Notes: generated by a model not told the origin, from the letters alone. Counted from the first letter of the stretch, positions 21,366-46,215 are shown. The stretch is 64,000 nucleotides of DNA from Patescibacteria group bacterium (GCA_030549845.1 JAUQQN010000001.1:6879-70878), one strand, 5' to 3'. Translations and numbers: made by a program.

Positions 21366-21409
21366 ATAATCTTGTTTCATTAATTTAATTTTATCACTTT
21401 TTAGGAAAG
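21366..21409. repeat. Duplicate of the mod promoter and first 7 codons ('box' copy 1)
   Basis: ATAATCTTGTTTCATTAATTTAATTTTATCACTTTTTAGGAAAG matches 46173-46215 with 2 mismatches. Similarity extends ~8 nt further 5' (TTGCT[T/C]ATAATCTTG). Encodes a remnant MKQDYKQ... (mod begins MRQDYEQ). Confidence 0.85.
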
Positions 21410-21436
21410 TTTTAGGTTGGCAGATAGAAAAACAAT

Positions 21437-21459
21437 TTTGGTAATCAGATTACGAAAAT
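21437..21459. repeat. P1 palindrome copy C
   Basis: TTTTGGTAATCAGATTACGAAAATACGTAAATAAT, same extended flank as copy A. Confidence 0.9.
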
Positions 21460-21508
21460 ACGTAAATAATGTTATATTGCTAAAAAGAAAGTTATTAGTT
21501 GTTAGCTT

Positions 21509-22510
21509 CTAGTTTTTTAATAAATAGTCCCGAATCAAAGGAATTAAACGCTTCCATTTAGGTGGTAATTCTTTCCCCAAAAATGCAAAAAGATTCTCTT
21601 CGTGAATGCTATTTTGTAATATTTCTCTAAGTTGTTCCTCCTCTTCTTCTGTTATAATCCTATTTACTTTAGCTTCTTTTACAATTTCATCTATATCTTG
21701 CTTATTAAGTTTAATCTTTTTCAATCTCTCTTCGTTTTTAATTTCTTGGATTTTTCTTCTTACAGCCTCGACAGAACCAAGATTAATCAACTGATCTTTT
21801 ATTTGTTGCTTTTTAACTTCATCTGCTTGAAGGCTTTGCAGAAATTCATCAATAATCATATAACATTCCCAAGCTATTATCATATTTATAAAACCGGTAA
21901 AATCAGACAACCCTTCGGAATTTAATGAACCCGCAATATCAAGAAAACAAGCAGTAAAAAACAAATTAATATCTATACCTTTTTCTATAATATGTTTCTC
22001 GAAATTTCTAGCTGAACTACTCTGGTTAAATATTTGAAAATACACCTCGTGGCTTGAAATTATTTTTAAAAGCTGTTCATTTCTATTAATAAAATCATTT
22101 ATTTCTTCTTCTTGAGCAAATTCTTGGATAATCCTTACCCCTTCTTCGCCATGATCTTTATTGCCAATACGGTAACTAATTTGTGTATAACCTTCACTTT
22201 TCAAAACTTCTAAAGCTGCATCACTATTTCCATTAGTCCTTTGTAAATACTCTTGCCATCTATCCATAGTAAAAGGCGTTTGATTTTTTTGAGAATCTAT
22301 GATCATCATACAATTCAATTTGCCTATATCATGTAGATAAATAAACCATAGTAATTGTTCAAATGAATTTTTGACAGTAGTGGTTATTATGCTAATAACT
22401 CGATTTCTAAGTTCCTCTAATCCTGGAGGGAATTTTAAGATACTAAAATCAAAAGAACCTCCCTTAATTTCTTCTAGGGCTTGAATCATTAGACCAATAT
22501 GAGCAGCCAT
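21509..22510 (-). CDS. HD-domain phosphohydrolase-like protein
   Basis: LWFIYLHDIGK (H..HD metal-binding motif); in-frame open extension continues to 22651 without an ATG, so the true start is uncertain. Confidence 0.55.
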   Translation of the reverse strand: MAAHIGLMIQALEEIKGGSFDFSILKFPPGLEELRNRVISIITTTVKNSFEQLLWFIYLHDIGKLNCMMIIDSQKNQTPFTMDRWQEYLQRTNGNSDAALEVLKSEGYTQISYRIGNKDHGEEGVRIIQEFAQEEEINDFINRNEQLLKIISSHEVYFQIFNQSSSARNFEKHIIEKGIDINLFFTACFLDIAGSLNSEGLSDFTGFINMIIAWECYMIIDEFLQSLQADEVKKQQIKDQLINLGSVEAVRRKIQEIKNEERLKKIKLNKQDIDEIVKEAKVNRIITEEEEEQLREILQNSIHEENLFAFLGKELPPKWKRLIPLIRDYLLKN

Positions 22511-22968
22511 TACAGGACCTTCACTATGATAAGGACCTAATTGAGGAATATTTAAAGATTCTTCAACAATCTCTCTTAATTTTTGGGGTATTTTAATATC
22601 TTGAAGTTTTTCTCGAGCTAAATTAATCCAACTTTCTATATTTTGTGCTGTTAATTTCCGTGAGTCCTTTGAGCGATTTTCTTAATGAGGTTGTGGTTTA
22701 TAAATTTCGGATTGCATTTAAAAATTTATACAATAAGCTTGTAAAGTTTTTTTTGCTTAACCTATTGATGACGAAAATTTTATATAGAGTTTTCTCGGTT
22801 ATTTTTCTCTCTTTTCTTTTTTCAAGAATTCCAAATTTTTCTTCACATAAAACTCCTTTTATTAAATCCTCAAGTATTGCATTATTATATTATAACTTAA
22901 TTATTAATTAGCACAATTCTTTTTCATTACTTAACCAGTTAATTGATTTTTCGTCTTTTTCGTAAGTC

Positions 22969-22992
22969 TTTTTCGTAATCAGATTACAAAAC
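22969..22992. repeat. P1 palindrome copy D (degenerate)
   Basis: TTTTTCGTAATCAGATTACAAAAC. Confidence 0.8.
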
Positions 22993-23047
22993 CTCAAATG
23001 CGACAAATAAATCCTTTTTCTCAAGAGGCTGAGAAATTAATTATAAT

Positions 23048-23863
23048 TTAGAGAATTATTCTTAAATCATCATTTTTTAAGATAATATTTTTTGTTTTAA
23101 GGTCGAGATATATTTGAATAGCTTTGATTTTTATATCTTTCTTTTTAGCAATTTTAAGTAATTTATAGATTTTTTCATCAGCATCCTTATTTGGTTTAAA
23201 AGCATTAATATTTTTAATACCTGCGATAAAAAGGATAATTGAATTTTTTGGTTTTCTTATTAATTCTTTAATATGTTTTTGACCCCTCAAAGAGGGACAG
23301 TCAGGATACATAGCAAGATTATCTCTTTTCATTACAGCACTTTTAATTTCTAAATAATATTTTTTATTTTTGTATTGAACTAAATAATCAATTAGAGAAT
23401 TATTTAATTTTATATTCTTTTTCAATATTTTTGCTCCTTTAAGCCATGAAATCAAATTTTTTTCAACAGCAATTTCAAAACATTTCATTTGAAGTAAAGT
23501 ATCTATTATACTTGCTGAGTTTTTGTCTTCTTTAATAAAGGAAAGTCTATATTTTGTTTTTTTAGGATTTTTTAGAGGGGAAAGATAACCAATTTTTCTT
23601 TTAATTAAAAATTGTTCTAATCTTCCAGTATTATTTAAAGAAGCTTTAGTAATTTTATTATTAATTTTTACCTCGATAACAAATCTATTTACTCGTCTAA
23701 CAATTTTAGAGGGGATTAAAGAAGGGATTTTTAAAATGCTTCTCATCAAACAAAATTCTATTATAATTAATTTCTCATTATCTTGAGAAAATAAGGAAGA
23801 TTTTCGCTCTGCGCCGTTTTTACGCTGTAAAGCAATTTTTAAGTAATCTGAAGAAATATTCAA
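23048..23863 (-). CDS. sfsA: SfsA-like (sugar fermentation stimulation protein A family; nuclease-fold DNA-binding protein)
   Basis: YLEIKSAVMKRDNLAMYPDCPSLRGQKHIKELI matches the SfsA core (Y.EVKSVTL......FPDAPTERGQKHL.EL); N-terminal RFV.EV.....TKA...NTGRL. Confidence 0.7.
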   Translation of the reverse strand: MNISSDYLKIALQRKNGAERKSSLFSQDNEKLIIIEFCLMRSILKIPSLIPSKIVRRVNRFVIEVKINNKITKASLNNTGRLEQFLIKRKIGYLSPLKNPKKTKYRLSFIKEDKNSASIIDTLLQMKCFEIAVEKNLISWLKGAKILKKNIKLNNSLIDYLVQYKNKKYYLEIKSAVMKRDNLAMYPDCPSLRGQKHIKELIRKPKNSIILFIAGIKNINAFKPNKDADEKIYKLLKIAKKKDIKIKAIQIYLDLKTKNIILKNDDLRIIL

Positions 23864-23882
23864 TTAAATCCTACCAAATATT

Positions 23883-24914
23883 TTAATAAACCTGATTTAA
23901 TTCCAAATATGCTAAAGTTGCAAATGAATAAAGAAAAGTTTTAAAAATACCTGATAATAAAAGAACCCCTCCGAAAACTAATGTGCCTAATATAATTCCA
24001 ATTATAATTCCTGCTATAGGTGAAATAAAATATAACCCTATAACAAGCATTATAATAATAAAAATTGTAGGGGAAAGAATAAAATATTTAATTCCTGTTT
24101 CCAGAGCCATATATATAAGCCAAGTTAATAAAACATTTTTAGGATTAGCAAATAATAATCTTCCCGCATTCTTTAATGAACCCAAAGCTCCGTTATTTTT
24201 TATTACAATAAACCTTTCAGCAAATATATGTAATATAGAAAGATAAGCTAAGATTAATAACCATAAAATAAGTGAAATTATTCCTACAAAAATAGAAGCG
24301 GGGACATTTCTTGTAGTAAAATTAAAGTAGAGAAATAGTAAAACAAAAAGTAATAAACTAAAATCACCGAGAAATGAAATAATTAACTTCAAAAAGAACA
24401 TTCTGAAGAAATAATGAGCTCCATCTTTGAATAATTTTCTAAAATTTATTTCTTCCTCTTTTTTAATATTATTTACTCCAGAAATCAATGCAGTCTTTGA
24501 TATAAAACCTAGGATTATAAAAATTAAATAAATTGCAATTAGAATAAATATTATTTCTATATAATCCCACCAAAGGCGCCTTAAAATACTTATATAAGGA
24601 TCTTCTAAAATCAAGCTTTTCGCAGTTTCTAAACTATCATATGGAGGGTATATTGGTAATGTCTCTTTTAAAGATTCATGAATAGATGCTAAAAATTTTG
24701 TTGACCATATTGGAGGCAGAAAAAGAAGAGGGAGATTCAAAAACCCTTCTTGCTTAAATTCCTTTAATATATTTAATATATCATTAATATCAATTAAAAA
24801 TCTCAAATCAATAAAAATAAACTCTAATAAAAATGCGAATATTCCAAAGATCCAAAGAAATTTATACTTAAATGTTATTTGCCAAGCTCTTGAAATTATA
24901 TAAGAATAATTCAT
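23883..24914 (-). CDS. Hypothetical polytopic membrane protein
   Basis: ~8 hydrophobic helices, no recognisable motif. Confidence 0.45.
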   Translation of the reverse strand: MNYSYIISRAWQITFKYKFLWIFGIFAFLLEFIFIDLRFLIDINDILNILKEFKQEGFLNLPLLFLPPIWSTKFLASIHESLKETLPIYPPYDSLETAKSLILEDPYISILRRLWWDYIEIIFILIAIYLIFIILGFISKTALISGVNNIKKEEEINFRKLFKDGAHYFFRMFFLKLIISFLGDFSLLLFVLLFLYFNFTTRNVPASIFVGIISLILWLLILAYLSILHIFAERFIVIKNNGALGSLKNAGRLLFANPKNVLLTWLIYMALETGIKYFILSPTIFIIIMLVIGLYFISPIAGIIIGIILGTLVFGGVLLLSGIFKTFLYSFATLAYLELNQVY

Positions 24915-24958
24915 TTATAGAATTATAGAACAAATCAATTCCAAATTTCAATTTAATA

Positions 24959-24981
24959 GTTTCGTAATCAGATTACGGAAG
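24959..24981. repeat. P1 palindrome copy E
   Basis: GTTTCGTAATCAGATTACGGAAG, ~45 bp upstream of the 23883..24914 gene start. Confidence 0.85.
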
Positions 24982-25066
24982 ACATGTTATTTTTAGAAGA
25001 AAAATTACAAAAAAAATTTTATTTATTTAAGGGCACCTCTAGAATTTTTAAGTTCTTTTAATCACT

Positions 25067-25089
25067 TTTCGCAATCAGATTACGGAAGA
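25067..25089. repeat. P1 palindrome copy F
   Basis: TTTTCGCAATCAGATTACGGAAG, ~58 bp upstream of the 25147 (+) gene. Confidence 0.85.
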
Positions 25090-25146
25090 GAGGACTTGTT
25101 AAAATAATTTTAAAATAATTTTAATGTTAAGATAATTTTAAGCAAC

Positions 25147-26166: not shown

Positions 26167-26202
26167 AATCTTACATATCCTTCAGCCACCAAAAATCTAC
26201 AG

Positions 26203-26225
26203 TTTTCGTAATCAGATTACGAAAA
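26203..26225. repeat. P1 palindrome copy G
   Basis: TTTTCGTAATCAGATTACGAAAA, perfect; sits between convergent gene ends. Confidence 0.9.
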
Positions 26226-26273: not shown

Positions 26274-27539
26274 CTATAGACCAAATTCTGCTGGAAGGTT
26301 GTTTAAGATGAATTCTTGTGGTTTTTCTGTAAAAATAATTCTTTTTCCTAAAGATTGTGCAAAACCAATTTCTAAAAGAGCTGAAGCTTCAACATATCCA
26401 TCTGGATCGCAAACTATTAAAGCATCAGAGTTAATAATTGAGTTTAAATGGTAACGTTCTAATTCTAATGGAGATAAACCTTCCTTGCCGCTAAAAATTA
26501 CGAATTCTTCTCCAGGATTTTTAGGTTCAATAAACCTTGGACTAAGAACTTTAACTCCAGAAGCTTCTAATTCTTTCTTTATTTTCAAAATGTAATCTAG
26601 ATGTTTTCTAAAACTCCCACTTAAAGTTACATACCTAAACTCTTGTCTAATAACACCATTTATCAAATTAGAATCTGATGGAATAATTTTTAAAATCCCA
26701 TACTTTTCGCATATAGCTTGCGAAATAGCCGAAAAAGCTCTTGCCCCATGCATCCATTTTGGATTATCTGGCATTAAATCTTCAAGTTCTTTTAAGGTTA
26801 TCTTTTCAAAAATTTCCTTATTTTTAATTTTGTAATCATCAATTGTAATCAAAAAAGGATGATCTTCATCTTCAAATAAATTATTTTTTTGAAGTGGATA
26901 ATCGGCTAACTTCATATATGTTAATTCTCCTCCTGTTAAGAAGGCAATTTCAGATTTATTATCTAATACCGGAAGTTTTGACTCCACAAAATTTACAATT
27001 TCATCTAACTTTGTCCTAGATATATTTTCATTAATCTCAGGAAATTTAGTTAAAATTGTACCAACTCCTATGTCTAGATTCTTTCTTTCAATAGCTTCGT
27101 CGCCATACATTACTACTAATTCAGTCGTTCCTCCGCCAATGTTAATAAGCAAAATAGGTTCTTTTAAACTACATTTTCTTATTAGCGCCTTTTCAAGATA
27201 AAAATTTTCTAACTCCTGACTTATGATATTAAAATACAACCCCGTTCTTAAAAAAACTTCATCAATAAAATCTGTTTTAGTCGCTGGAGCTAATTTTCTA
27301 AAAATTCCTGTAGCATAAATTTTTATCTGGGCATTTCTATTTTGTGCTTTTATTGCATCCAAAAGTTCGAAAAGTTCTTTTTTAGATTCTGGCGAAATTC
27401 CACCTTCAGGGTCAAAATTTTCTTTAAAAAAGATGGAACGTTTTAATAATAAACTTAATTTTTGACCAGAATATTTATAAACCTTAATAGTTGGAGAACC
27501 AATATCCAAAAGAATTTTTTCCATATTTATAAAAAACAA
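26274..27539 (-). CDS. Fusion protein: Ppx/GppA-like (ASKHA) N-terminal domain plus nucleoside 2-deoxyribosyltransferase-like C-terminal domain
   Basis: N-terminus LLDIGSPTIKVYKY...ATGIFRKL resembles the Ppx/GppA phosphatase fold. C-terminus DALIVCDPDGYVEASALLEIGFAQSLGKRIIF resembles the NDT/LOG-like motif (Y.G.S...E.G.A.A.GKPI). Confidence 0.5.
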   Translation of the reverse strand: MFFINMEKILLDIGSPTIKVYKYSGQKLSLLLKRSIFFKENFDPEGGISPESKKELFELLDAIKAQNRNAQIKIYATGIFRKLAPATKTDFIDEVFLRTGLYFNIISQELENFYLEKALIRKCSLKEPILLINIGGGTTELVVMYGDEAIERKNLDIGVGTILTKFPEINENISRTKLDEIVNFVESKLPVLDNKSEIAFLTGGELTYMKLADYPLQKNNLFEDEDHPFLITIDDYKIKNKEIFEKITLKELEDLMPDNPKWMHGARAFSAISQAICEKYGILKIIPSDSNLINGVIRQEFRYVTLSGSFRKHLDYILKIKKELEASGVKVLSPRFIEPKNPGEEFVIFSGKEGLSPLELERYHLNSIINSDALIVCDPDGYVEASALLEIGFAQSLGKRIIFTEKPQEFILNNLPAEFGL

Positions 27540-27654: not shown

Positions 27655-27677
27655 TTTTCGTAATCAGATTACGAAAA
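27655..27677. repeat. P1 palindrome copy H
   Basis: ACAGTTTTCGTAATCAGATTACGAAAATTTATT; flank identical to copy G over ~35 nt. Confidence 0.9.
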
Positions 27678-33287: not shown

Positions 33288-33641
33288 ATGAAAATAATTT
33301 ATACTATTGGGCATTCAACAAGAAAATTAGAAGAATTTATTGAGCTTTTAAAGAATTTTAAAATTGAAGTTTTAATAGACATTCGTCATTTTCCCCATTC
33401 AAAACATAATCCTCAATTTAACAAAGAAATTTTAGAAAAAGAATCACCGAAAGAAGGAATAGATTATCTTTGGCTTGAAGAACTTGGCGGATTTAGAAAG
33501 GGAGGTTACTTAGCTTACACTGAAACACAAGATTTTAAAGAAGGATTAAGAAAACTTACAAAAATTACTGAAGAAAAAGTAACCAATTTTCGTAATCAGA
33601 TTACGAAAATTTTAGGAATTCATTGCAATTTTAGGTTTTAA
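33288..33641 (+). CDS. DUF488-family protein, C-terminally truncated/replaced by a P1 palindrome copy
   Basis: N-terminus MKIIYTIGHSTRKLEEFIELLKNFKIEVLIDIRHFPHSKHNPQFNKE is canonical DUF488. The usual C-terminal ...CAE...CHR segment is absent; the last 17 codons are encoded by the P1 repeat (33587-33609) and its flank. Confidence 0.6.
   Translation: MKIIYTIGHSTRKLEEFIELLKNFKIEVLIDIRHFPHSKHNPQFNKEILEKESPKEGIDYLWLEELGGFRKGGYLAYTETQDFKEGLRKLTKITEEKVTNFRNQITKILGIHCNFRF
33587..33609. repeat. P1 palindrome copy I (inside the DUF488 3' end)
   Basis: CCAATTTTCGTAATCAGATTACGAAAATTTTAGG. Confidence 0.9.
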
Positions 33642-34719: not shown

Positions 34720-34755
34720 CTTAATAAAAAATAATTTTATAAAGATTTCTCAATT

Positions 34756-34777
34756 TTTGTAACCTGATTACGAAAAT
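34756..34777. repeat. P1 palindrome copy J (degenerate, ~40 bp upstream of gene start 34719)
   Basis: TTTTTGTAACCTGATTACGAAAA. Confidence 0.8.
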
Positions 34778-34933
34778 ATTAATTCATGGATTTCTTTTAT
34801 CTTAAGATGATATTCTTCTCATATAGTTTCTTTTAATTGAGGTGTTATCGTAATAAAAACTTTTGAATAAAAAAGACTAACAAATCCATCAAAAATTAAA
34901 ACCATTAACTGAGTAAAATTTTTATCCCTATTT

Positions 34934-35983
34934 TTATTGTCTCGGCACTGGGGTACAAACATTATTAACACATTTTATTCTAAATTGGCCAGTAAAACCC
35001 GTACAAAAATCAGGACATTCTCTTGAAGTATCAATAAATCTTTTATTTCCAAAAGCACATTTTTTTGTTTCTTTATCAACTCCGCAGGCACAATCAGCAT
35101 CAGTTTGGCAAAACATTTTACCTACTTCTGAAGGAAAACCTGGAAATTGTGATCCTGGCGGAAAACTAGGAAGTTCTGAAGTTTTCTTACAAGCTTTAAG
35201 ATCATTATCAGTGAAATTTGGTAAGCCTCCATCCATACCAAAATTAGTAAGCATAATTGATCTCTGCTGTATCCCTATTCTTTCTTTAAACATTACAAAA
35301 TAAATTGGTACTTCTCCTGAAAGCCAAAATTCATTTATTACTTTTTCATTTTCCATTACCCCTTCTTTTTTAAATTTAGCAACTTTAATCTTTTTACCTG
35401 ACTCCAAAGTTATTTCTTCTTCGCCAACAAAATTCCATTCAGAAAGATTAACTTTATATTCTTTTTCTAAATTCTCATTTGAAAATGCTACATCTGGTAA
35501 ACCACCAACAAATCCCTTCATAAATTTTTCTTTCAAGCATTGAGTGGGCATCCCCTTACCTTTTGCTAAATAAAGAGATTCCCCTGTTTCTTTATTAAAC
35601 ACCATAGCAAATATCATTCCTCCCATTAATTCGTCACTATCCATTTCAATTCCAACATATTCTTTACCACCAATCGGAAGAGAAATAAGTTTGACTAAAG
35701 CTTTAAAAATTCTTGGCGTCTCTTTACTACCCATTAAACTTACTCCATAACCTTCAAGCTTATATTCTAACCAAGCTTCTTTTTTAAACCCAATTCCTGG
35801 AATTATTTTAAAATTATCCCCTTCTACTTTGGGCACTTCATAACCTTCTGGCGCTTTATATCCACCAATTTCTGGAACTTGATAACTTCCTTTTTGTGAT
35901 TTTCCTTTAAGAACAAAAAATCCAATCACCATAACTAAAACCATTATCCCTACTAAAATAAAAAGTAAAAATTTTTTATCCAT
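34934..35983 (-). CDS. Secreted/anchored hypothetical protein with Cys-rich C-terminus
   Basis: N-terminal TM/signal (FLLFILVGIMVLVMVIGFFVL); C-terminal CQTDADCACG...CAFGNKRFIDTSRECPDFCTG...CVNNVCTP. Confidence 0.5.
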   Translation of the reverse strand: MDKKFLLFILVGIMVLVMVIGFFVLKGKSQKGSYQVPEIGGYKAPEGYEVPKVEGDNFKIIPGIGFKKEAWLEYKLEGYGVSLMGSKETPRIFKALVKLISLPIGGKEYVGIEMDSDELMGGMIFAMVFNKETGESLYLAKGKGMPTQCLKEKFMKGFVGGLPDVAFSNENLEKEYKVNLSEWNFVGEEEITLESGKKIKVAKFKKEGVMENEKVINEFWLSGEVPIYFVMFKERIGIQQRSIMLTNFGMDGGLPNFTDNDLKACKKTSELPSFPPGSQFPGFPSEVGKMFCQTDADCACGVDKETKKCAFGNKRFIDTSRECPDFCTGFTGQFRIKCVNNVCTPVPRQ

Positions 35984-36083
35984 TTTTTTATTATATTTTT
36001 AATGCCGCCCTCTTTGGATAAATTTTACAATAAAAACTTAAATTTTTATTTTAGTAAATATATCTTTAAAAATAAACTTAAAA

Positions 36084-36275
36084 TTATAAATTTTACATTT
36101 ACAATGCTATAGCATTTTAAATTTACAGCCCTTTCAGTAAGCATAGTTTTTTAAATGTGGGCTCATTTTTGAAGGTAGGCTAAGGATTTTAAATTTACAA
36201 TGCTATAGCATTTTAAATTTACAATTCTTTTTAAATAAGCATATTCTTCGAAGGTGGGTTAGAATTTTTCAGAAG
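36084..36275. repeat. Two ~96-bp tandem units, each with TTTAAATTTACA direct repeats flanking the palindrome AATGCTATAGCATT
   Basis: Palindromes at 36103-36116 and 36199-36212; unit tails share TAAGCATA...GAAGGT.GG.TA. Lies in a 560-bp spacer upstream of the 34934..35983 gene. Confidence 0.8.
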
Positions 36276-36543
36276 CTCCACTGCAGTGTTTTTTTTAATC
36301 TTCATTATAAATAATGGGATTTTCTGAAGTACTGTAATAAGCAATAAATGCTTTAAAGGATTCAAAGGAATTTCCATCATTGAATTTTCTTCGATTTTTG
36401 ATATTGTTTCTAGTTTAAATCCTAGATAGTAGATTATCTCATGACATATTTTATCCGTTATTGATTTTGGCGAGTCATCTTCTGATGGTTTATAAACTAT
36501 TACAGGATAAAAACCAAACTCTTTTTTTATACCTATAACTCCA

Positions 36544-37230
36544 TCAACATCGAGAAAGGGTGCTTCGCCTAGAAGTGTGGTAAGGGTGAGTTTTAAGGGA
36601 TAGAAGAAAATTATTTAAATAATAAGTAAATGAGGAAATTATTGAAAAATTGTGTTGGTTAAGAAGATCTTCTAATTCTTTTTTTGAATAATATTTTCTT
36701 GCTGATTCTAAATTTTTTATTATTTTAAGAAGTAGTTTAAGATAAAAAACATCAGGCGAGGGATCAACTAATAAAAATAAACCATTATCTTTTAAAACTC
36801 TTCCTATTTCTTTTAAAGCTGAGTCTGGATTGTAGAAATGATGGAAAGTATCCACACAGATAACAAAATTAAAACTTCCCTCTTCAAAGGGTAAATTTTC
36901 AACATTAGCTTCAATAATTTTTGTATTATTTAGATTAAAAGTTTTGTTTATTGCTTTTTCAACCATACCTTTTGAGAAATCAACACCGAAGAATTCTACT
37001 TCTTTAAATTCTTTTGCTAATTTGAAAATAACTTCAGCTGTTCCACATCCAACATCTAAAAATTTGCTTTTAGGTTTTAAGTATCCATTTGTTTGATTTT
37101 TGATTACTTCGATTACTTTTTTATAAAGTTTTTCAAAATAAATTAATCTAAATATCGAAGAATCATAAAACCTTGACCACAAATCAAACTGTTTTTTATT
37201 TAAATTTTCAAATTCTTCTTTTGTCATCAA
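36544..37230 (-). CDS. Class I SAM-dependent methyltransferase
   Basis: LDVGCGTAEVIF motif I, DTFHHF; odd GC-richer C-terminal tail ...KTHPYHTSRRSTLSRC suggests the 3' end may be altered. Confidence 0.7.
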   Translation of the reverse strand: MMTKEEFENLNKKQFDLWSRFYDSSIFRLIYFEKLYKKVIEVIKNQTNGYLKPKSKFLDVGCGTAEVIFKLAKEFKEVEFFGVDFSKGMVEKAINKTFNLNNTKIIEANVENLPFEEGSFNFVICVDTFHHFYNPDSALKEIGRVLKDNGLFLLVDPSPDVFYLKLLLKIIKNLESARKYYSKKELEDLLNQHNFSIISSFTYYLNNFLLSLKTHPYHTSRRSTLSRC

Positions 37231-37313
37231 AAGTTTTTTAAATTAAGAATTATATAACCTTAAAAAACTAAAAATAGTATTCAAGATAAAATTGAATTCA
37301 AAAATAATTATTT

Positions 37314-38015
37314 TTATATACTATTTCTTTTTTCAAAATAACTACAATAAGCACAATTTGGATTAGCAAGTGGAGGAGTTTTGCTATAATAAACCTCTTT
37401 TAAGTTTTCTAAAATTTCATCATATTTTTCATAATCTAAATTTTCTACCAAAACAACATCTCTTTCTTCAATTATTAAGGTTTCTCGCCTGTTTGAATCC
37501 CCTAATTCTTTAATGATATCAATTTTAACTACATAAAAAGCTCCATAATTTGCTACTTTTTCTTTATTTTTTAAAAGCAAGTAGCCATAAATTTCTAACT
37601 GTCTTTTATAACTCTCATAAATTTGAAAATTTTTACTTAATGTTGTTTTGAAATCAAAAGGTACAAGATTATTATGTTTATCAATTAAAAGTTCATCAAT
37701 CTTCCCCCAATAAATAAAATTATGTTCTGGATGATAAAACTCTATGCCTTTACCTCGCCAAGTTTTTAATTTTTCAAAATCATCAAAAAGATCTAATCCA
37801 AGTTCTTTTAATTTTTCTGGCTTAGTAAAGCTTTGGCGGTAATTGTCGAATTCACTTTTAATTAATGGATCGTATTTTTGGCCTATAAACCCACCTGTAA
37901 TTCCTTCAGGTCTTTTAATATTATGTTTAATTTCTAACCAAAAACACCTTGGACAATCAATAAAAAGTTCAATTTTAGCTCTGGATATTTTGATAGTACT
38001 GTTTGTATTTTTCAT
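37314..38015 (-). CDS. PD-(D/E)XK nuclease, Cas4/RecB-like with 4-Cys cluster
   Basis: N-terminal CPRC and C-terminal CAYC cysteine pairs bracketing a nuclease core (..D..K pattern FDFKTT...QLEIYGYLL); architecture like DUF83/Cas4-family exonucleases. No cas genes nearby. Confidence 0.55.
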   Translation of the reverse strand: MKNTNSTIKISRAKIELFIDCPRCFWLEIKHNIKRPEGITGGFIGQKYDPLIKSEFDNYRQSFTKPEKLKELGLDLFDDFEKLKTWRGKGIEFYHPEHNFIYWGKIDELLIDKHNNLVPFDFKTTLSKNFQIYESYKRQLEIYGYLLLKNKEKVANYGAFYVVKIDIIKELGDSNRRETLIIEERDVVLVENLDYEKYDEILENLKEVYYSKTPPLANPNCAYCSYFEKRNSI

Positions 38016-38329
38016 GGAAAAACATTTTAAATTTCGACATATTCCAATTTTTTAATTATAGAACAATAATTTAAAAAATCTAATAATTTTTATCATTAAT
38101 CATTCAGCCAACAAAAAAGGCCTTAAAATTCCTTAGTCATTGTTCAAATTTATTTTCTCAATTTCTAGAGAAAATAAGAAAGGTAAATTTTTAAAATTTC
38201 TAAAGTAAATTTTTAAATTTTATAAAATACCTTTTTAATTTCGGCCTTTTTGAATAAATTTCGCAATAAAATTTTTATTTTTCAATTTTGGTTAGTATAT
38301 TTTTAGATACCATGTTTAAGCTGTTTTAA

Positions 38330-39142
38330 ATTTATTATTATTTTTGATCTTTAATACATCCAAAATCTTTTTTTCTAAGTTTTTATTCCAATTTTCTATA
38401 TCGGTTAATTTATTAATAAAATCAACTAATTTGTAATATTCTATAACAAAACAATTATCTAACCCCTGAACATTTTCTATTTTTCCATTTACAAAAACAA
38501 CAATTGGGATTGTTTTTATATTGATGTTATTATCCTTTAATAACTCATTTAAAAAAATTCTCTTTCTAAAATTTGGCGAATCGGATTTTTATAATAAAGT
38601 TTATATCTCATTTTACCTTTTTCTTTGCGATATAATTCTTGACCACTAACCCTAAATAATCCGTGGTAATTTTTAATCTCTAATAAAATTATTCCTTTAG
38701 GCCCTATTAGTATTCCATCAATATCACCTGTCTCTATATTGGATAATTCATAATTTTTAATATAATTGGATAATTCATAATTTTTAATATAAACATATTT
38801 ATCACTCAAATGTCTTTTTAAAAATTTTATAACCCTATTTTCTCCTTCTTCGCCTTTTATCAAAGAGTCTAATTTATCAATTAAACTATCTAAATACTCA
38901 AAACCTCCTAAAATAGAAAATAATAAAAATACAATTAAAAAGAAAATTGCTATACTGGAAAAGAATTTTTTGACAGGCTCTAAGAATTTAAGAAATTCTG
39001 GTAATGGTACTAATGAAAAAACGCCTGTAAAAACAAAAATAAGCAAAAATACTAATAAAAGTAAAAGAATAATTGTTGGTTTATTGCCAATTTTTTCAAG
39101 TTCTTTGGCGAGGTATGATTTTTGATATTCTATTATCCTCAT
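38330..39142 (-). pseudogene. NERD-domain protein with N-terminal TM segments, interrupted by a frameshift at an A7 tract (38551-38557)
   Basis: Track ORF 38549..39142 ends ...QILEREFF*. The adjacent frame continues LNELLKDNNINIKTIPIVVFVNGKIENVQG... (canonical NERD continuation) to a stop near 38330. Removing one A from the homopolymer fuses the two parts. Confidence 0.6.
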
Positions 39143-39252
39143 TTATAAAAATCAAATATAAACATATTTTTATCTCATAAATTGACTTTAAAAAAATTTT
39201 TATTTTGATACATTGATTATCGTAGTTTTTATCTCGATTAATTTATTAAACA

Positions 39253-42144
39253 TCACAACTTGCCTTTTGTAAAATTTACAATGTTTTCTAAGATCTTATC
39301 AAAATTTTCAAACCAATAATCTTTATAGCCGGAAGATCTAACTCTATCTTCATCTTCTGTGTATAGAAAACAAAAAATATAACAATTTAGATTTTTGTAT
39401 TGGAATTTTTTAGGCTTATTTTCTTCTTCGAAAATTTCTTTATATCCTAAAACTTTATCTTCAAAATTCCTATAACTTGTACTCTTAGGATCAACAAAAA
39501 CTATATAATAATCATTCCCTCTCTTAAGCCAAAAAATAAAGTCTGGTTTGAAGTTTTCAAACTGGGATTTTTCATAATTATAGTAAGGAATATAGACATC
39601 ATCTAAATTTTCATCAATTTTGCTAAATAACCACCAATCAAAATTATTGAATTTACTTTCTTTACTAGCAATATATTTTTCTAACTCTTCTATAAATTTA
39701 ATCTCGCTTTTAGTTTTTATTATATGTTTTATATATTCCACTCTCTCATTTCTTTGCAAAATCAAAGGAAGATAATAATGTTGAGGAATGTATTTTAAAT
39801 CTAATTCTCTGCCATATACTGAAGTTTTTTTATTTTCAAATACATTCTTTATTAAATTTTCAAAATTTTTAAAGTCTGCTTCTTCTAATTCAACAATAAT
39901 TTTTTTATAATGCTTTATCTCATCCTTTAATTCTTCAATATTTTCTAATTCTCTTAATTCTTTATTCCAGAAATTAAAAATATTATTCAAAACTACTACG
40001 GGATTTTTGACAATTGACTGATCTACAAATTTGTAAAACTGATTTTCTCTTTCAAAAGAATTTTTAACAAATTTCAAAAGTTTAGGCTCAACATTGTAAT
40101 TAACTAACAAAATTCTTTCATCTTTAATAAATTCGTAAAATTCTCTAACCAAACTCAATTCATCTCGTGATAATTTAAACCTTGATTTTACTTCACTTTC
40201 TTCAAATAACTTTTTATCTGCAAGCTTGTATTTAGGAATTAAGAGAATTTTATCTTTTATAATTTCTTCATTTTTAAATAGACGAAGTTCTTTTTTAGCT
40301 TTTGTTTCTTTTTTAAACTCTTCTGTTTCTTTTAAGATCGTCTCCAATGCTGATTTGTTAGTGCCAAATATAAATAAAGTTTCTATAGAAGGCACAAAAT
40401 CTTTAATTTTTTGAAAAACATCCTTAAACTCTGGATCTAAATCTATATATATTCCTCTTTTCCTTTGATTTTTAACAGGTTCAATTCTTACCCCTCTCCC
40501 TATTGACTGCAAAACAAATTTCCTAGCATTTTTCTGCGTGCCAATATTTATAAACATTATTATATTCGGCCTATTGGAATCCCATCCTTCATAAAATACT
40601 CTTGAACCAAGTAAGATGTTTACTGAAGATTCTTCATCATTTACCCTTTCAAAAAATCCTTCATTTTCGAATGTATGATTTACTTCAAAATTCAATAACT
40701 CATTTTTAAGCCAATTTGGCATTTGTCCGGTTTTACTAAGACAAAAATGAGAATCTGATGTTTTTAATTTAAAAGCAACTTCACTATTATTTGAAGGATT
40801 AAAAGATATTTCTATTTCTCCAGGTTTTTCCGAATTAAACACATATCTTAAAATATCTCGGTAATTTATTGATTGTAAAAGTTGGTCATCAAATTCAATT
40901 TCCTCGTTTGGCAGTATATATTCCTTTTTATTATTTAATTCTTCTATAATTTCATTTTTAGCCTCTTCAATAATTTTTTCTTCTACTTTTCCTTTCCCTA
41001 TCTTCTCTAATTCTTTAAATATTTTCTTTAAATCAGCTAATTCATTATCAACAGAGTTTACTAATACTAAAATTAATGGCTTATGATATAAATTGGTTTT
41101 GATTTTTCTAATCTCTTCAAGATTCTTTTTAATATATGTCAAAAGAATTAATGCTTTAAGAATAATTTTTTGTTTAGTTAAATCATCAAAATCTTCTTTA
41201 TTTCTAAAAGCATCAATATCTCTTTCGAAAATATAAATTTTCTTACCGAATCCTTTTTCAATAAAACTTGAAAGATTAAATTCATAAACGCAAGTTACTA
41301 AATCTCTAATATCATCAAAAGTCGCTGAAAAATTAAAAAGAAAACCATTTTGTGAAAGAATAGAATAGATATGTTGTCTTTTTGATTCATCTTTGTCGCC
41401 TTTATGAGCTTCGTCCAAAATTAAATACCATTTACCTTCATTATAATAATTTCTAAAATCTATAATTTTTTCTTTCTCTTCATCGCTAAACAAATCTGAT
41501 CTATAATAAAAAACAATATTTTCTTTAAAAAGTTTTAAAGAAGATTTTATTTTCTCATAATCCTTAAAATTACAAAGTTCAATTCTATTTTGTATATTAA
41601 ACTTATTATATTCATCTATGTGCTCTTGAAATTGCTTTATTAAATCTTCCCTATGAGTCAGAAATAAAATGTCATAATCAGGTATTTCTCTTCTTTGAAT
41701 CAAATTTTTGAGAATTTCTATAAGTTTAATAATCACCAAAGTCTTTCCGCTCCCAGTTGCCATCCAAAAACTCATCCTATTAATGAAATGCTTAAAACTT
41801 ATCTCGTTATTTTCTAACTCGTAATAATCAAAAATAAATTTATGCTTTCTTTCTTCCTTGTATTTATGAGAAACTTCTTGAGGATTTAAGCCCCAATCTA
41901 AATATTTTTCATACAAAATTTTCTTTCTTCGCTCATTAATTTCTAAATTTTCATTTTCAAAATAGTCATACTCTTTATCATAGTAGAACCATAAAATTTT
42001 TAAAGCATTCTCTAGAGCTTCTTTTTGAAAATCATAAAGTTTTTTATTCTCAGAGAAATTATCTAAATCAAAATTCTGCCAATTAAAAGATAATTGATTT
42101 TTATCAATATTTTCAGCTATTTTTTGAAGAATTAACTTTGCCAT
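39253..42144 (-). CDS. res: Type III restriction enzyme Res-like subunit (SF2 helicase plus C-terminal PD-(D/E)XK endonuclease)
   Basis: Motif I MATGSGKT, motif II ILDEAHKG, motif III NFSATF, motif VI QSIGRGVR; C-terminal KPDFIFWLK...YIVFVDPK nuclease motif. Confidence 0.75.
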   Translation of the reverse strand: MAKLILQKIAENIDKNQLSFNWQNFDLDNFSENKKLYDFQKEALENALKILWFYYDKEYDYFENENLEINERRKKILYEKYLDWGLNPQEVSHKYKEERKHKFIFDYYELENNEISFKHFINRMSFWMATGSGKTLVIIKLIEILKNLIQRREIPDYDILFLTHREDLIKQFQEHIDEYNKFNIQNRIELCNFKDYEKIKSSLKLFKENIVFYYRSDLFSDEEKEKIIDFRNYYNEGKWYLILDEAHKGDKDESKRQHIYSILSQNGFLFNFSATFDDIRDLVTCVYEFNLSSFIEKGFGKKIYIFERDIDAFRNKEDFDDLTKQKIILKALILLTYIKKNLEEIRKIKTNLYHKPLILVLVNSVDNELADLKKIFKELEKIGKGKVEEKIIEEAKNEIIEELNNKKEYILPNEEIEFDDQLLQSINYRDILRYVFNSEKPGEIEISFNPSNNSEVAFKLKTSDSHFCLSKTGQMPNWLKNELLNFEVNHTFENEGFFERVNDEESSVNILLGSRVFYEGWDSNRPNIIMFINIGTQKNARKFVLQSIGRGVRIEPVKNQRKRGIYIDLDPEFKDVFQKIKDFVPSIETLFIFGTNKSALETILKETEEFKKETKAKKELRLFKNEEIIKDKILLIPKYKLADKKLFEESEVKSRFKLSRDELSLVREFYEFIKDERILLVNYNVEPKLLKFVKNSFERENQFYKFVDQSIVKNPVVVLNNIFNFWNKELRELENIEELKDEIKHYKKIIVELEEADFKNFENLIKNVFENKKTSVYGRELDLKYIPQHYYLPLILQRNERVEYIKHIIKTKSEIKFIEELEKYIASKESKFNNFDWWLFSKIDENLDDVYIPYYNYEKSQFENFKPDFIFWLKRGNDYYIVFVDPKSTSYRNFEDKVLGYKEIFEEENKPKKFQYKNLNCYIFCFLYTEDEDRVRSSGYKDYWFENFDKILENIVNFTKGKL

Positions 42145-42179
42145 TTATTAAATTTTAAAATTAGGATTTATTGTTGCTG

Positions 42180-42956
42180 TCATATAATTAATTTTTCTAA
42201 AATATTCCTATCTAATCTCTTTAAATATTCATTAACATAAAAATAGTCTGGTTCTTGTTTAATCGCTCTTGTTATTATTCTAAAAGCTTTATCTAAGCCT
42301 ATATCTTCTTTCAAAACTTGATTGACATTGAAAAGAATTAAACCTATTCCAAATCTTAAACATAAAGATTCTAATCTACTTAAATCAACCTGAGATATTG
42401 TCTCTGGTAATACTAAATAAACTTTATGACTAAATAATTTATAAGAACAAGCTTGACCAAAAGCAATAATTGGCTGATTAGTATCTATTTTAATTTCAGC
42501 ACTAATTATTTCTGGTAATGGTTCAATTATTGATGGCTTCGAGATTTTATAAATTCCTAAAACATCTGGAGTACCCCATCTATCTCTAAACACACTACCT
42601 CCTAATGGTATAGTTTTTGTACATCCTTCTAATTCTTGTACTAAATAATCAGCAAATTTTTGATAGATTGTCTCTTCTCTAATTTTTGTTTCTTCTTCAA
42701 ATATTTTTTCTTCCTTAAGATTTTCATAAAATTTCCTTAAAATATAGAGCCCTCTTTCTGGTTTTATTACATCTTTGATTTTTTTATCTAAATTCCATAT
42801 TTCCCATTGAATAAGTTTTAATTTAATTTCTGGATATTCTTCGTAAATTTTATTTACTAATTTAGAATACCTTATTCCTTGAGGTGAATTTTCTAAAATC
42901 TCCAAAGCTTTTTCTCTTATTGCTTCCTGTTTTTGTTTATGGGTTAGTTTTTTCAT
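42180..42956 (-). CDS. Hypothetical protein with possible PD-(D/E)XK-like core, embedded between mod and res
   Basis: GTPDVLGIYK ... SAEIKID (PD...E.K pattern); N-terminal helical/wHTH-like region. Overlaps the upstream gene by 20 nt, so co-transcribed. Confidence 0.4.
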   Translation of the reverse strand: MKKLTHKQKQEAIREKALEILENSPQGIRYSKLVNKIYEEYPEIKLKLIQWEIWNLDKKIKDVIKPERGLYILRKFYENLKEEKIFEEETKIREETIYQKFADYLVQELEGCTKTIPLGGSVFRDRWGTPDVLGIYKISKPSIIEPLPEIISAEIKIDTNQPIIAFGQACSYKLFSHKVYLVLPETISQVDLSRLESLCLRFGIGLILFNVNQVLKEDIGLDKAFRIITRAIKQEPDYFYVNEYLKRLDRNILEKLII

Positions 42957-43626
42957 TTTTATAATTTAAATACTTCAAAAGATATATAAAATCCTCTTTA
43001 ACACCAACAATTTCACTAATACTCATAGGGGTAATATTTTTTTTCATAACAATATGTAAGGATAATGTATGATTACTAGGTTTAATTTTCATTGTTTTTA
43101 TTTGAAAATATTTTAATATTTCATTAAACATTTTTTGAATATAATCAATTATCTCTTTTAATTCATCTATGATGTCATTAAATTTAATAACTGATAATAT
43201 ATCTACCGCAGATAATTTTTTATTGATATCTATATGGGCTACAACCTTATTTACAGTTTTTAAAATCTCATTAATTTCATTGTTTTTATATTTATCAATT
43301 TCTGATTCAATTTCTTTTAATTTCTGCACATCTTCCAATAAATTTTTGTGTTGGAATTCTTTAGAGAAATAGATTAGGGGAAAATATAAAGAATATACAT
43401 CATCTCTTTCTCTTTTATCGAAAATTTTTCTTATTTCTAATAAAGTTATTAAAAGAGTGTTGATAACAAACAAAATAAAAAAATTTCTAAATTTTTTTAT
43501 TAGAATATGATTCCTATATTCTTCTAGTACATTTAAATTTGTTTTAACAAAAGCAATTTCTTTTGCCAAAATATCTTTCCACTCTTCCAGTTTTTTAATT
43601 GCATTTTTATTTAAAATTTCTTCCAT
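42937..43626 (-). CDS. Hypothetical protein with one TM helix and coiled-coil regions, embedded between mod and res
   Basis: FRNFFILFVINTLLITLLEI hydrophobic segment; starts 4 nt after the mod stop. Confidence 0.4.
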   Translation of the reverse strand: MEEILNKNAIKKLEEWKDILAKEIAFVKTNLNVLEEYRNHILIKKFRNFFILFVINTLLITLLEIRKIFDKRERDDVYSLYFPLIYFSKEFQHKNLLEDVQKLKEIESEIDKYKNNEINEILKTVNKVVAHIDINKKLSAVDILSVIKFNDIIDELKEIIDYIQKMFNEILKYFQIKTMKIKPSNHTLSLHIVMKKNITPMSISEIVGVKEDFIYLLKYLNYKNEKTNP

Positions 43627-43630
43627 CTTT

Positions 43631-46186
43631 TCACCACCAAATTAATTTTTTAATTTCTGGCAAATGTTTTTCTAATTGATTTAAACTTACTTTTTCTCCA
43701 TCTTCAAATTCAACTTCATTTTCTGAAATTTTTTTAAGCCACTTGCCTTTTAAACAAGAAAGTGTTTCAGCAATATCTACATTTGAATAAATTTTACTAA
43801 AATCAATTTTTATCTTGTTATTTTCATAATTAATTTCTAAGGCTTCTAACATTTTAGGGTCAGCCATAAATATATAATTAAAATCTTCTTTAAATAATTT
43901 AGGTGATTCTTTTTCAGTCAAATATTTTGCTTTATCCAAAATATCTGGAAATTGCTCAAGTTCATAATATTTGAAAAATCCACCTGCTTTATCTTCGTTA
44001 TATTTTTCCTTAACATCCTTTTCTTTTGATATTCCAAATTTATCATAAGCTAAAACCTTTTTCATTCTTGGTAAAACTACTGTATAAAAATGCTCTCCCA
44101 TCTCTACACCAATCCATTTTCTTTTTAGTTTATGTGCTACTGCTGTTGTTGTGCCACTTCCTAAAAAGAAATCCATAACTAAATCGTCTTCGTTGGAAGT
44201 AGATTCTATGACACGTTTGAGAAGGATTTCAGAGTTTTCGGTAGGGAAACCAGTTGATTTGGATATAACGTAAGTGTAGCCTAAAATATCTGTCCAGTCA
44301 TTATTTACAGGAACCTCTCGTCTTAAATAGAAAGCATCAAACTCCCTAGAGCTACATTTTTGACAACAGAGAATCTTTAGATTAGGATCAGTATTTTGAT
44401 ATTCCCATCCACAATTCTTACACACGATTTTTATATTTCCTTTACTTATTTCAATTTCTATTCTCTCTTGAGAAAATTGCCAATGAGTTCCTTTTGGTGC
44501 TTTAATAATCATTCCCCAAAATACCCGTGTTGGTTCTCCTCGTTCCCCAGGGAAAAACATTATTGTCCATTCTAGCTTTTCGTCAGGTTTAGGTCTTAAA
44601 GGTATAGTTATGGTTGCTTTTTGTTTATTCACGGAAAAAAATATTAAGCTTTCTGTATCATTTTCAAATTTATTTCTCTCTTTACTCTCAGTTCTCTTTC
44701 CTTTTCTTACTATTATCTCATTCCTAAAATTCTCCTTTCCAAAAATCTCATCCATCAAAGGTCTTACAATCCAATTCCCATTGTAATCACATCTAACAAA
44801 AATACTTCCTGTATCTTTTAACAACTCTCTTGCAAGCCTTAGTCTATTTTCAAGCATTGTAGCCCAGGTGGAGTCTTTGTATTTTACAGAATAGAAATAA
44901 TCTGCTTCTTGTTCTTTATTAAATGGTGGATCGATATAAATAGTTTGCACTTTTTCTTTAAATTTTGGTAAGATTGTATTTAATGCTTGATAATTTTCGC
45001 TCTTTATTAACCAACCATCTAAATTTTCATCTAAATTATCAAAAAGGCTTAAAATTTCAAGTTCTAAATCTTTAAAGTATTTTGTATCTATAGGTAAAAA
45101 TTGATATTTTTTGTTTAAATTTTTGCCACTTAAATCTTTTTGAATGATTTTATTTTTGTCAAAATCTTCATCAATTATATTTAATTCTTTCCATTCTTTT
45201 ATTTGTTCACTAAAATTTTTATGATTTATTATCTTTTCAATAATTTGGATTCCCTTTTCATGATTTTGTTTTACTAATCTATCTAAAGTGATAACATAAT
45301 TCGAATTTAAAACAAATCTTGGTTTATTCCATATTTTTACAAGTTCATCCTCAAATTTAGAGACAAAATCAATAATAAATTCTGCGCATTCCCTTAACTT
45401 ATTTATCTGATCGATTCTTTCTGGAGTATAATCTTGGTTAGTTGAGAAAAATTTATTATAGATAAATAGTTTTAATTGTTCGGTTAAAAAAGCTTTTGCA
45501 TTTTTATGAATAAAATAATCTATTTCTGATTGTTGTTCAAATTTTTTGAATGCTTTTTCTAAAATTTCTTCTGTTAACTTGATATTCTTGTTTTTAAATT
45601 TATTTTTTAATTTTTTGAGAATTTCATCTATTTTTGTTGTTTTCCCTTTTTCTGAATAATAAACTTTAAAAACAAATCTTTCTTCTGATGTTTGACTTTC
45701 ATCTAATTCATAAATAAGCTCTCTTTTCTCATTTGCTTTTTTAGCTTCAAGAGTTGAAACATCAAAGTAAAATCTAAATTCTTTATTATTTTCTTGTAAG
45801 ACAACTTCTAATGATTTATATATTCTATCGGTTTTAAGATAATAAAGATCACGGGTTTTCCAAAATAAAATTATGTCTTCTTTATCTGTATAAACCCTGT
45901 CATAAATTTGATGATAGTATGGAGTATTAACAAAATAGATTGATCCTGATTCTGAAAAATATCGAGAAAAGAAAGTATAAATTTTTTCAAAAAGTTCTTC
46001 CTTAAAATTTGGGTATTTCTTTAAAATTTCTTTTATTTTTTGTTCGAGCTTAGGTTTAAAAACTTCATCGTAATATTTCTTTTTAATTTTCATCAAATTT
46101 ATATAGCCACCAGTGCCCTCAATCTCAGCCCCAACAAACATATTAGTTAAAAGATTGTAAAATTTTTGCTCATAATCTTGTCTCAT
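43631..46186 (-). CDS. mod: Large beta-class N6-adenine/N4-cytosine DNA methyltransferase (Type III Mod-like) with Zn-ribbon insertion
   Basis: Motif IV IYIDPPFN precedes motif I VMDFFLGSGTTTAVA (beta-class order); CKNC...CCQKC zinc ribbon between them; 851 aa. Confidence 0.75.
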   Translation of the reverse strand: MRQDYEQKFYNLLTNMFVGAEIEGTGGYINLMKIKKKYYDEVFKPKLEQKIKEILKKYPNFKEELFEKIYTFFSRYFSESGSIYFVNTPYYHQIYDRVYTDKEDIILFWKTRDLYYLKTDRIYKSLEVVLQENNKEFRFYFDVSTLEAKKANEKRELIYELDESQTSEERFVFKVYYSEKGKTTKIDEILKKLKNKFKNKNIKLTEEILEKAFKKFEQQSEIDYFIHKNAKAFLTEQLKLFIYNKFFSTNQDYTPERIDQINKLRECAEFIIDFVSKFEDELVKIWNKPRFVLNSNYVITLDRLVKQNHEKGIQIIEKIINHKNFSEQIKEWKELNIIDEDFDKNKIIQKDLSGKNLNKKYQFLPIDTKYFKDLELEILSLFDNLDENLDGWLIKSENYQALNTILPKFKEKVQTIYIDPPFNKEQEADYFYSVKYKDSTWATMLENRLRLARELLKDTGSIFVRCDYNGNWIVRPLMDEIFGKENFRNEIIVRKGKRTESKERNKFENDTESLIFFSVNKQKATITIPLRPKPDEKLEWTIMFFPGERGEPTRVFWGMIIKAPKGTHWQFSQERIEIEISKGNIKIVCKNCGWEYQNTDPNLKILCCQKCSSREFDAFYLRREVPVNNDWTDILGYTYVISKSTGFPTENSEILLKRVIESTSNEDDLVMDFFLGSGTTTAVAHKLKRKWIGVEMGEHFYTVVLPRMKKVLAYDKFGISKEKDVKEKYNEDKAGGFFKYYELEQFPDILDKAKYLTEKESPKLFKEDFNYIFMADPKMLEALEINYENNKIKIDFSKIYSNVDIAETLSCLKGKWLKKISENEVEFEDGEKVSLNQLEKHLPEIKKLIWW

Positions 46187-46215
46187 TAATTTAATTTTAT
46201 CACTTTTTAGGAAGG
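46173..46215. repeat. Mod promoter / 5' end 'box' (copy 2, the functional one)
   Basis: ATAATCTTGTCTCATTAATTTAATTTTATCACTTTTTAGGAAGG; includes the mod ATG (CAT at 46184-46186). Confidence 0.85.

Follow-up and report, generated by a model that had tools for sequence, protein, structure and literature searches.

The locus examined here raises the question of why the beginning of one gene is found twice, in the same orientation and 24.8 kb apart. The gene is mod, the methyltransferase gene of a Type III restriction-modification system, and both copies lie in a 64,000-nt stretch of DNA from a Patescibacteria group bacterium (GCA_030549845.1 JAUQQN010000001.1:6879-70878; this whole stretch is called the window below). 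We refer to the copy at 46.2 kb as box A and to the copy at 21.4 kb as box B. A previous sequence-only reading took the two boxes as scars of integration or recombination that enclose the 21.4-46.2 kb between them as one unit. Our results argue for a different history, which we consider probable: box B is a truncated second copy of the lineage's own mod 5' end within an 836-bp accessory unit and not an attachment-site (att) scar, and the 24.8 kb is a mosaic that changes at copies of a 23-bp palindrome (palindrome P). Coordinates of the features are listed in Table 1, and individual palindromes are called by their central positions (e.g. 21447).

The two boxes and the mod stub

The boxes (21360-21407 and 46166-46213) lie in direct orientation and agree at 46 of 48 positions (47 of 50 for the 50-nt strings that were first singled out, whose start coordinates were about 1-2 nt low), and their near-identity and common orientation stand as first described. 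With up to three mismatches allowed, the box pattern has two matches in the window and no third, compared with none in 100 dinucleotide shuffles; its 28-nt core is also present in the window in two copies only (boxes A and B), and a search of IMG/VR with the box pattern returned no match. A palindrome P lies near each box, again as described, at 8 nt (46222-44, box A) and 28 nt (21436-58, box B) upstream in gene orientation.

Box A is the working 5' end of mod, as had been proposed. Its minus strand reads TTCCTAAAAAGTGATAAAATTAAATTA-ATG-AGA-CAA-GAT-TAT-GAG-CAA and runs on into an 851-aa open reading frame (ORF) with the N6_N4_Mtase domain. The box carries an extended -10 element (TGATAAAAT, 7 nt before the ATG); a promoter consensus scan flagged neither box, because neither has a -35 element. 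The system is identified as Type III by PF01555 in the 851-aa protein and by PF04851 together with the PADLOC family REase_III in a 963-aa protein (res), and mod and res are separated by two extra genes.

Box B heads the stub, an ORF of 14 codons. What it keeps of mod is the ATG and seven codons, along with the leaderless promoter (extended -10) and about 47 nt of sequence upstream. Its description as a gene-start remnant was borne out by two NCBI metagenome-assembled genomes (L012 and L013, found through Mod homologues at 83% aa identity): the box B region aligns to the upstream part of their mod loci with 89.6% identity over 67 nt in L012 (9954-10020) and 88.2% over 68 nt in L013. This match runs about 20 nt further upstream (TATCTGCCAA.C.AAAAC) than the 48-nt similarity of box B to box A. 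Beyond -29, all of box A's upstream sequence has been replaced by palindrome-bearing sequence, and homology to the relatives' mod loci begins at 46215; the break of synteny upstream of mod thus lies 7 nt from the palindrome at 46222-44.

Boxes A and B have TAAAAAG in common where L012 and L013 have CAACAAG, and the stub in L001 (a Logan contig that is identical to the window over 20270-21106) departs from box A at one of 50 positions; we infer from these two observations that the stub was made from the lineage's own mod after the split from the lineage of L012 and L013. It would also have been made before, or independently of, the remodelling that set a palindrome 8 nt from box A, and at a time when the linkage between the restriction-modification block and the HlyD-like gene of the left flank already existed, since L012 has it (see below).

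Two independent Logan assemblies also have the stub, namely L001 (translation MKQDYEQLNIPIII*) and L002 (whose contig ends inside the box), so it is no artefact of the window's assembly. Between L001 and the window, 8 differences were found in the 87 nt of the stub segment (21347-21433), versus 4 (one of them an indel) in the 1,077 nt of 20270-21346. The 14-codon ORF holds five of the 8, of which three are synonymous and two are not, numbers too small for conclusions on selection. We also considered the stub as an internally deleted copy of a whole restriction-modification module and found no support for this, as the best local matches of its tail, one at 23.6 kb and one flanking palindrome 34765, do not exceed those of shuffled controls. 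A second restriction-modification system in the window was rejected as well, with no further mod or res fragments detected there by tblastn.

A simpler explanation would be that the box is a generic promoter or leader reused by many genes, so that the similarity of the two copies holds no historical information. About 20 of the 64 genes in the window start without a Shine-Dalgarno sequence and with TAnAAT placed 12-14 nt ahead of the ATG, which suggests that leaderless transcripts are widespread in this organism, and the 15-17-nt core TAAAATTAAATTAATG of the box is also found at the start of two unrelated genes (8633 and 56832). To that marginal extent only, the common leader that the sequence-only reading had named as its own possible refutation does exist. 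The similarity, however, extends over 48 nt within the window and over 67-68 nt to the relatives' mod, includes seven mod codons and non-promoter upstream sequence, and is confined in the window to the two boxes. We read the 15-17-nt core as a generic leaderless promoter and the 48-67-nt similarity as mod-specific, and we give almost no credence to leader reuse as the source of the two boxes.

The stub is linked to PDDEXK_3, a gene of the PD-(D/E)XK family, in every case (window, L001 and L002). A role as a captured promoter is plausible because the extended -10 and the ATG of the stub are intact in all three assemblies, because the PDDEXK_3 gene follows 226 nt downstream on the same strand, and because a TAnAAT at -12 and a well-placed ribosome-binding site are both missing from its start. 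The stub may thus now supply transcription into PDDEXK_3, an idea that we put forward tentatively and would not bet on. The stub illustrates the copying of a leaderless promoter into a new gene neighborhood.

The interval between the boxes in related strains

The restriction-modification genes were next to the HlyD-like gene before the box was duplicated, as L012 shows the linkage with one box and no palindrome. The gene order of L012 is mod, 288aa, WH, res, NERD, 349aa, 78aa, 44aa, PGA_cap and then the HlyD-like gene (91% aa identity); mod, WH, res, NERD, 349aa and HlyD have the same order and orientation as in the window. The resident block of the window (mod to the 349-aa gene) has 91-98% nt identity with L012 and L013 over the alignable segments, swapped segments aside (97-98% for the 5' 1.5 kb of mod, 92-95% for its last 0.6 kb, and 95-98% for WH, res and NERD).

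The swapped segments are found in and next to mod. The centre of the gene (44250-44706) is unalignable with L012 and L013, which suggests an exchange of the target-recognition domain. The next gene after mod, AbiU2-HEPN (42937-43626), is represented by an unrelated 288-aa gene in L012 and by a gene with only 37% identity in L013, and L013 has a Fic gene before res. Conserved ends (92-98%) around an unalignable centre and a swapped next gene are as in Type III mod allelic replacement, whereas a domain exchange normally leaves no promoter stub 24.8 kb away. The swaps indicate that the locus recombines often, and in such a setting partial copies can remain.

Closer relatives differ from the window in whole modules. 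L014 (98.7% nt identity to the window across HlyD and the ABC transporter) has the order 349aa, 78aa, palindrome, palindrome, membrane protein, truncated SfsA, palindrome, 333aa, a single 37-mer and HlyD. The 836 bp between 20611 and 21447 (stub, palindrome and PDDEXK_3) are absent, and of the 37-nt direct repeat that flanks this unit in the window (20598-20634 and 21434-21470, 36/37 identical) one copy is left; 25.1-34.9 kb is missing too, with an edge at palindrome 25077. L001 keeps HlyD, PDDEXK_3 and the stub, and has the palindrome upstream of the stub joined straight to the right flank of palindrome 24970, so that 3.5 kb (333aa, SfsA and membrane protein) is missing and the junction is inside the palindrome. 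This junction does not reflect an assembly collapse at k=31, because the longest exact run common to the parent sites is 14 nt. In total, the comparisons with L001 and L014 give eight breakpoint ends, of which six are on a palindrome. Another contig, L015, consists of the module with a Ppx/GppA-like gene, cut at its two flanking repeats.

These comparisons bear on the first model for the locus, in which the boxes are attL/attR-like scars left by site-specific or Campbell-type integration of one 24.8-kb island. Its repeats are indeed direct, 48 nt long and 96% identical, and if a circle made up of box, mod ... 333aa, palindrome and upstream sequence were opened by a crossover inside the box, the ancestral upstream sequence would end up beside box B, as observed; that sequence by itself therefore does not separate the models. 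The circle is made very unlikely by L012, where the restriction-modification and 349aa block lies beside the same HlyD gene with one box only. In L014, interior modules abut HlyD without the left box, and in L001 the left box is found without the adjoining interior modules. The interval also holds the Ppx/GppA-like gene (26274-27539), which is 70-84% conserved across hundreds of Patescibacteria, and boxes A and B have lineage-specific bases in common that are not in L012 or L013. No integrase, recombinase or transposase domain was found by Pfam in the 22 main ORFs of the interval or in 28 flank ORFs; GC (guanine plus cytosine) content is about 27% across the window with no step at either box, and the sole match of tRNA and Rfam scans of the window is a tRNA-Ser at 12.8 kb, far from both boxes. 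The proposed alignment of relatives, intended to reveal loss of the whole block, gave junctions in the palindrome and not in the box (L001 and L014), and no empty site with one box was seen. The claim that the boxes enclose 21.4-46.2 kb as one unit is therefore abandoned, and the integration of a single island is a highly improbable account of this locus. Known att-flanked islands do resemble the locus in having direct repeats of tens of nt, one of them in an intact gene, around a stretch rich in defence and metal-resistance genes. They differ from it in that here the end repeats come with no integrase, no compositional signal and no empty site or gain and loss of the whole block, the intact gene is inside the bracket, the relatives vary elsewhere, and part of the bracketed DNA is ancestral.

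The interval of 20.6-46.2 kb is instead a mosaic. One part is the restriction-modification block, whose linkage to the HlyD-like gene is ancestral; the rest is made up of roughly nine small modules with palindromes between them. Under the explanation that we favour, the units of this mosaic would be exchanged, lost or duplicated through recombination at palindrome copies, and the stub would be a by-product, namely a partial copy of the mod 5' end enclosed between two palindromes beside PDDEXK_3, which may have arisen by a partial duplication or truncation tied to such recombination. This removes a false island call and speaks against treating the genes for restriction, copper resistance and nucleases as a single mobile unit; within one species-level lineage, it is at copies of one short palindrome that gene content changes, by 0.1-10 kb at a time.

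Several points weigh against this explanation. The related assemblies number only four (five relatives were counted as informative); three of the four are short, and all are from metagenomes. The 43 nt from codon 7 to palindrome 21305 have no match above chance. The promoter activity of the boxes is predicted from their sequence. Finally, the ancestral upstream sequence kept in the stub and gone from box A is predicted by circle integration through the box as well.

Palindrome P and its possible roles

Palindrome P (TTTTCGTAATC-A-GATTACGAAAA and small variants) has 11 copies in the window versus 0.02 expected, all of them within 20.60-46.24 kb and none in the remaining 38 kb. Ten lie between genes, and with the other a truncated DUF488 ORF (33288-33641) comes to its end: the ORF stops inside palindrome 33587-33609, and its Pfam match stops at profile position 89 of 121; this gene appears to have been truncated at a palindrome junction. 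The palindrome is asymmetric only at the central base and at the C/G of arm position 5. The central base is A on the plus strand in nine copies, and T in the two (34765 and 46233) that flank the restriction-modification/349aa block. Three pairs of copies are part of longer direct repeats flanking modules, of 37 nt (20611/21447), 30 nt (21305/21447) and about 35 nt (26214/27666). Searches with TTTSGTAATCWGATTACGRAA gave four isolated matches in GTDB species genomes, five in JGI metagenomes and none in IMG/VR; the matches are in unrelated organisms and added no relatives. In four distant relatives (L016-L019) the Ppx-like gene is found in varied neighborhoods without the palindrome, which indicates that the palindrome is specific to this lineage and shows nothing more.

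What might the palindrome do? The copies could serve as operators for a single transcription factor or, as hairpins, in the termination or stabilisation of RNA, with the strain differences being ordinary deletions between short repeats and the stub a functionless relic. Several copies are 35-90 nt upstream of gene starts (mod and the 348-aa, membrane-protein, 339-aa and HlyD genes), the sequence can fold into a hairpin of 10 bp (-4 to -9 kcal/mol), and other hairpins flank the same Ppx-like gene in more distant relatives. Set against this, the distances to start codons are irregular (46 to >400 nt), two copies are between convergent genes and one is inside an ORF end, and the hairpin is not followed by a T-run, nor did a scan find terminator-like sites, which led us to reject the palindrome as a terminator. 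Six of eight breakpoint ends, and the synteny break upstream of mod, are also on a palindrome. We regard this alternative as unlikely; it concerns the role of the palindrome and is compatible with our conclusion on the boxes.

If modules are exchanged at the palindromes, as we favour, the exchange could be either site-specific (Xer-like, in the style of dif modules) or ordinary recombination between short repeats. Crossover points are hidden because the palindrome sites are identical, and the window contains no Xer-like gene and no Y1 transposase.

We compared the array with known families of repeats and modules, and each of them has at least one defining feature that the palindrome array lacks. 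In Acinetobacter plasmids, gene modules are separated by XerC/XerD pdif sites (PMC13141974, PMC6449649). As there, the locus has small accessory-gene modules parted by one short recombination-type site, strain differences of whole modules with junctions centred on the site (L001 and L014), and even an 'empty' module of 107 bp (24970-25077); a similarity of the palindrome arm TTTTCGTAATC to the XerC arm of Acinetobacter, ATTTCGTATAA, is a lead only. The site itself differs: in place of a polar 28-bp site (11-bp XerC arm, 6-bp spacer and 11-bp XerD arm, with distinct C and D arms), we find a 23-bp near-perfect palindrome (11-1-11). Its central base is the same in 9/11 copies, so that orientation does not alternate, and the array is chromosomal, in a probable Patescibacteria genome.

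REP/REPIN elements with RAYT transposases are extragenic palindromes of 20-40 nt with a GTAG or CGTC tag at one end (PMC3733652). The palindrome falls in this size range (23 nt, 10/11 copies intergenic) and is likewise repeated, hairpin-forming and linked to rearrangements. A conserved end tag is lacking, in that GTAG is near only two of the 11 copies (26214 and 27666, with CTGTAG adjacent); the copies are clustered in 26 kb and not dispersed over the window, and there is no RAYT gene in the window. Integrons, in turn, share with the locus mostly single-gene units parted by one palindromic site, with one site more than units. They differ in that here we find no IntI, attI or Pc and no promoterless cassettes ending in attC; the sites are 23 bp, compared with 57-141 bp for attC, the units have putative leaderless promoters of their own (TAnAAT 12-20 nt before the ATG), and one unit is inverted.

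A more far-reaching proposal is that Patescibacteria would have a chromosomal system, as yet undescribed, that shuffles modules by crossover at the palindrome. It would be similar to dif modules or integrons but with a near-perfect palindrome as its site and self-promoted cassettes, and the 142 bp between 21305 and 21447 would be a mod-derived promoter-only cassette that can be placed before other cassettes such as PDDEXK_3. We think this rather improbable. If the palindrome is the target of a recombinase, it would offer a simple route of gene flux, open to testing, in a phylum in which the biology of mobile elements is little known. A gene-start relic as such is ordinary; what is new is a lineage-specific palindrome family, REP-like or dif-module-like, at strain breakpoints.

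Gene content, host and further repeats

We scanned 22 main ORFs (at least 88 aa) in 20.6-46.2 kb and the 28 flank ORFs with Pfam. The nuclease and accessory genes of the interval encode PDDEXK_3, a 333-aa unknown protein, SfsA, a membrane protein, a 339-aa unknown protein and the Ppx/GppA-like protein; they are followed by a copper module (P-type ATPase, DUF411 and CsoR-type repressor), and further genes include the truncated DUF488 ORF, those for 348-aa and 349-aa unknown proteins, SAM methyltransferase, Cas4-like nuclease and NERD. Flank genes are ordinary bacterial ones (RecG, FtsX, a MacB/HlyD efflux system and glutamate dehydrogenase), with Gmad2/MFS on the right flank of the interval. 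Table 1 lists the features discussed in the text.

Table 1. Coordinates in the window of the mod gene, the boxes, the stub and its unit, and the copies of palindrome P
Feature	Coordinates	Strand	Remarks
mod, Type III, 851 aa, start MRQDYEQ, N6_N4_Mtase domain (PF01555)	43631..46186	-	
Box A	46166..46213	-	inferred leaderless promoter and mod codons 1-7
Box B with about 20 nt of ancestral mod upstream sequence (TATCTGCCAACCTAAAAC)	21360..21427	-	the upstream sequence is gone from box A
Stub ORF, 14 codons, MKQDYKQLNIPVII*	21336..21380	-	mod similarity stops after codon 7
PDDEXK_3 gene (PF13366), PD-(D/E)XK family	20687..21154	-	226 nt downstream of stub ATG, same strand
Strain-variable unit, 836 bp	20598..21470		palindrome, PDDEXK_3 gene, palindrome, mod stub, palindrome
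Resident block	34931..46215	-	mod, AbiU2-HEPN, WH protein, res (39253-42144), NERD (cut short), 2.2-kb insert, 349-aa gene
Palindrome P (TTTTGGTAATCAGATTACGAAAA)	20600..20622		upstream of HlyD-like gene; one edge of 836-bp unit
Palindrome P	21294..21316		between stub and PDDEXK_3; 30 identical nt shared with copy at 21430-21459
Palindrome P	21436..21458		upstream of stub; junction in L001 (to 24970 flank) and L014 (to 20611 flank)
Palindrome P	22970..22992		between 333-aa gene and SfsA; end of 600-bp versus 60-bp difference from L014
Palindrome P	24959..24981		upstream of 343-aa membrane-protein gene; other junction of 3.5-kb L001 difference
Palindrome P, degenerate	25066..25088		upstream of 339-aa gene (plus strand); edge of 9.85 kb missing from L014
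Palindrome P	26203..26225		between two convergent genes; with 27655-77 forms ~35-nt direct repeat flanking Ppx-like gene
Palindrome P	27655..27677		between Ppx-like gene and copA
Palindrome P	33587..33609		forms 3' end of truncated DUF488 ORF
Palindrome P, central T, degenerate	34754..34776		~160 nt downstream of 349-aa gene
Palindrome P, central T	46222..46244		8 nt upstream of box A; end of synteny with L012 and L013

A hot-spring lineage of Patescibacteria is the probable host; the nearest homologues of HlyD and Ppx are from hot-spring Patescibacteria/Parcubacteria. Four of the related assemblies (L012, L013, L014 and L018) were deposited as 'Candidatus Aenigmatarchaeota archaeon' or 'Nitrososphaerota archaeon'. 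These labels are probably due to mis-binning or mislabelling, because the window genes (RecG, FtsX and MacB/HlyD) and the nearest HlyD and Ppx homologues are bacterial (Patescibacteria). L018, a more distant Ppx-like locus, carries a CRISPR array. The Ppx/GppA-like gene is recurrently assembled as contigs of about 1.45 kb (including loci L015 and L017), which suggests repeats on both sides of it in several lineages; in L017 it lies between GC-rich hairpins and not between copies of palindrome P.

Within the resident block, NERD (38315-39142) is 197 aa long, compared with 263 aa in L012, and homologous sequence runs on past its stop codon; it is probably a frameshifted pseudogene. Next to it is a 2.2-kb insert (36068-38250; a Cas4-like PD-(D/E)XK gene and a SAM methyltransferase) that is absent from L012 and L013. 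The insert is flanked by imperfect copies, of about 70 nt, of the NERD/349aa intergenic sequence (35990-36060 and 38236-38300), which is single-copy in L012 and L013, and at its inner edge (36089-36230) a 45-nt unit (ATTTTAAATTTACAATGCTATAGCATTTTAAATTTACA...) is present twice, 96 nt apart, with a palindrome of its own (ATGCTATAGCAT). Outside the interval, a 142-nt relic of the 3' end of a UPF0047 gene, stop codon included, was found 3.9 kb upstream of the gene (50565-50706 versus 54484-54625, 94% identical), and the two copies bracket genes for SIMPL, a 128-aa ORF and a beta-propeller protein. Short gene-end relics at the borders of variable blocks are thus common in this genome (the 2.2-kb insert and UPF0047), and against this background the mod stub stands out less.

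A second, unrelated palindrome family (AACAAATAGTTCCGTACGGAATTATTTGTT) has copies at 5693-5745, 6468-6520 and 58444-58496; two of them flank a PaaX/Cas2-like gene (5748-6434), and the third is 52 kb away.

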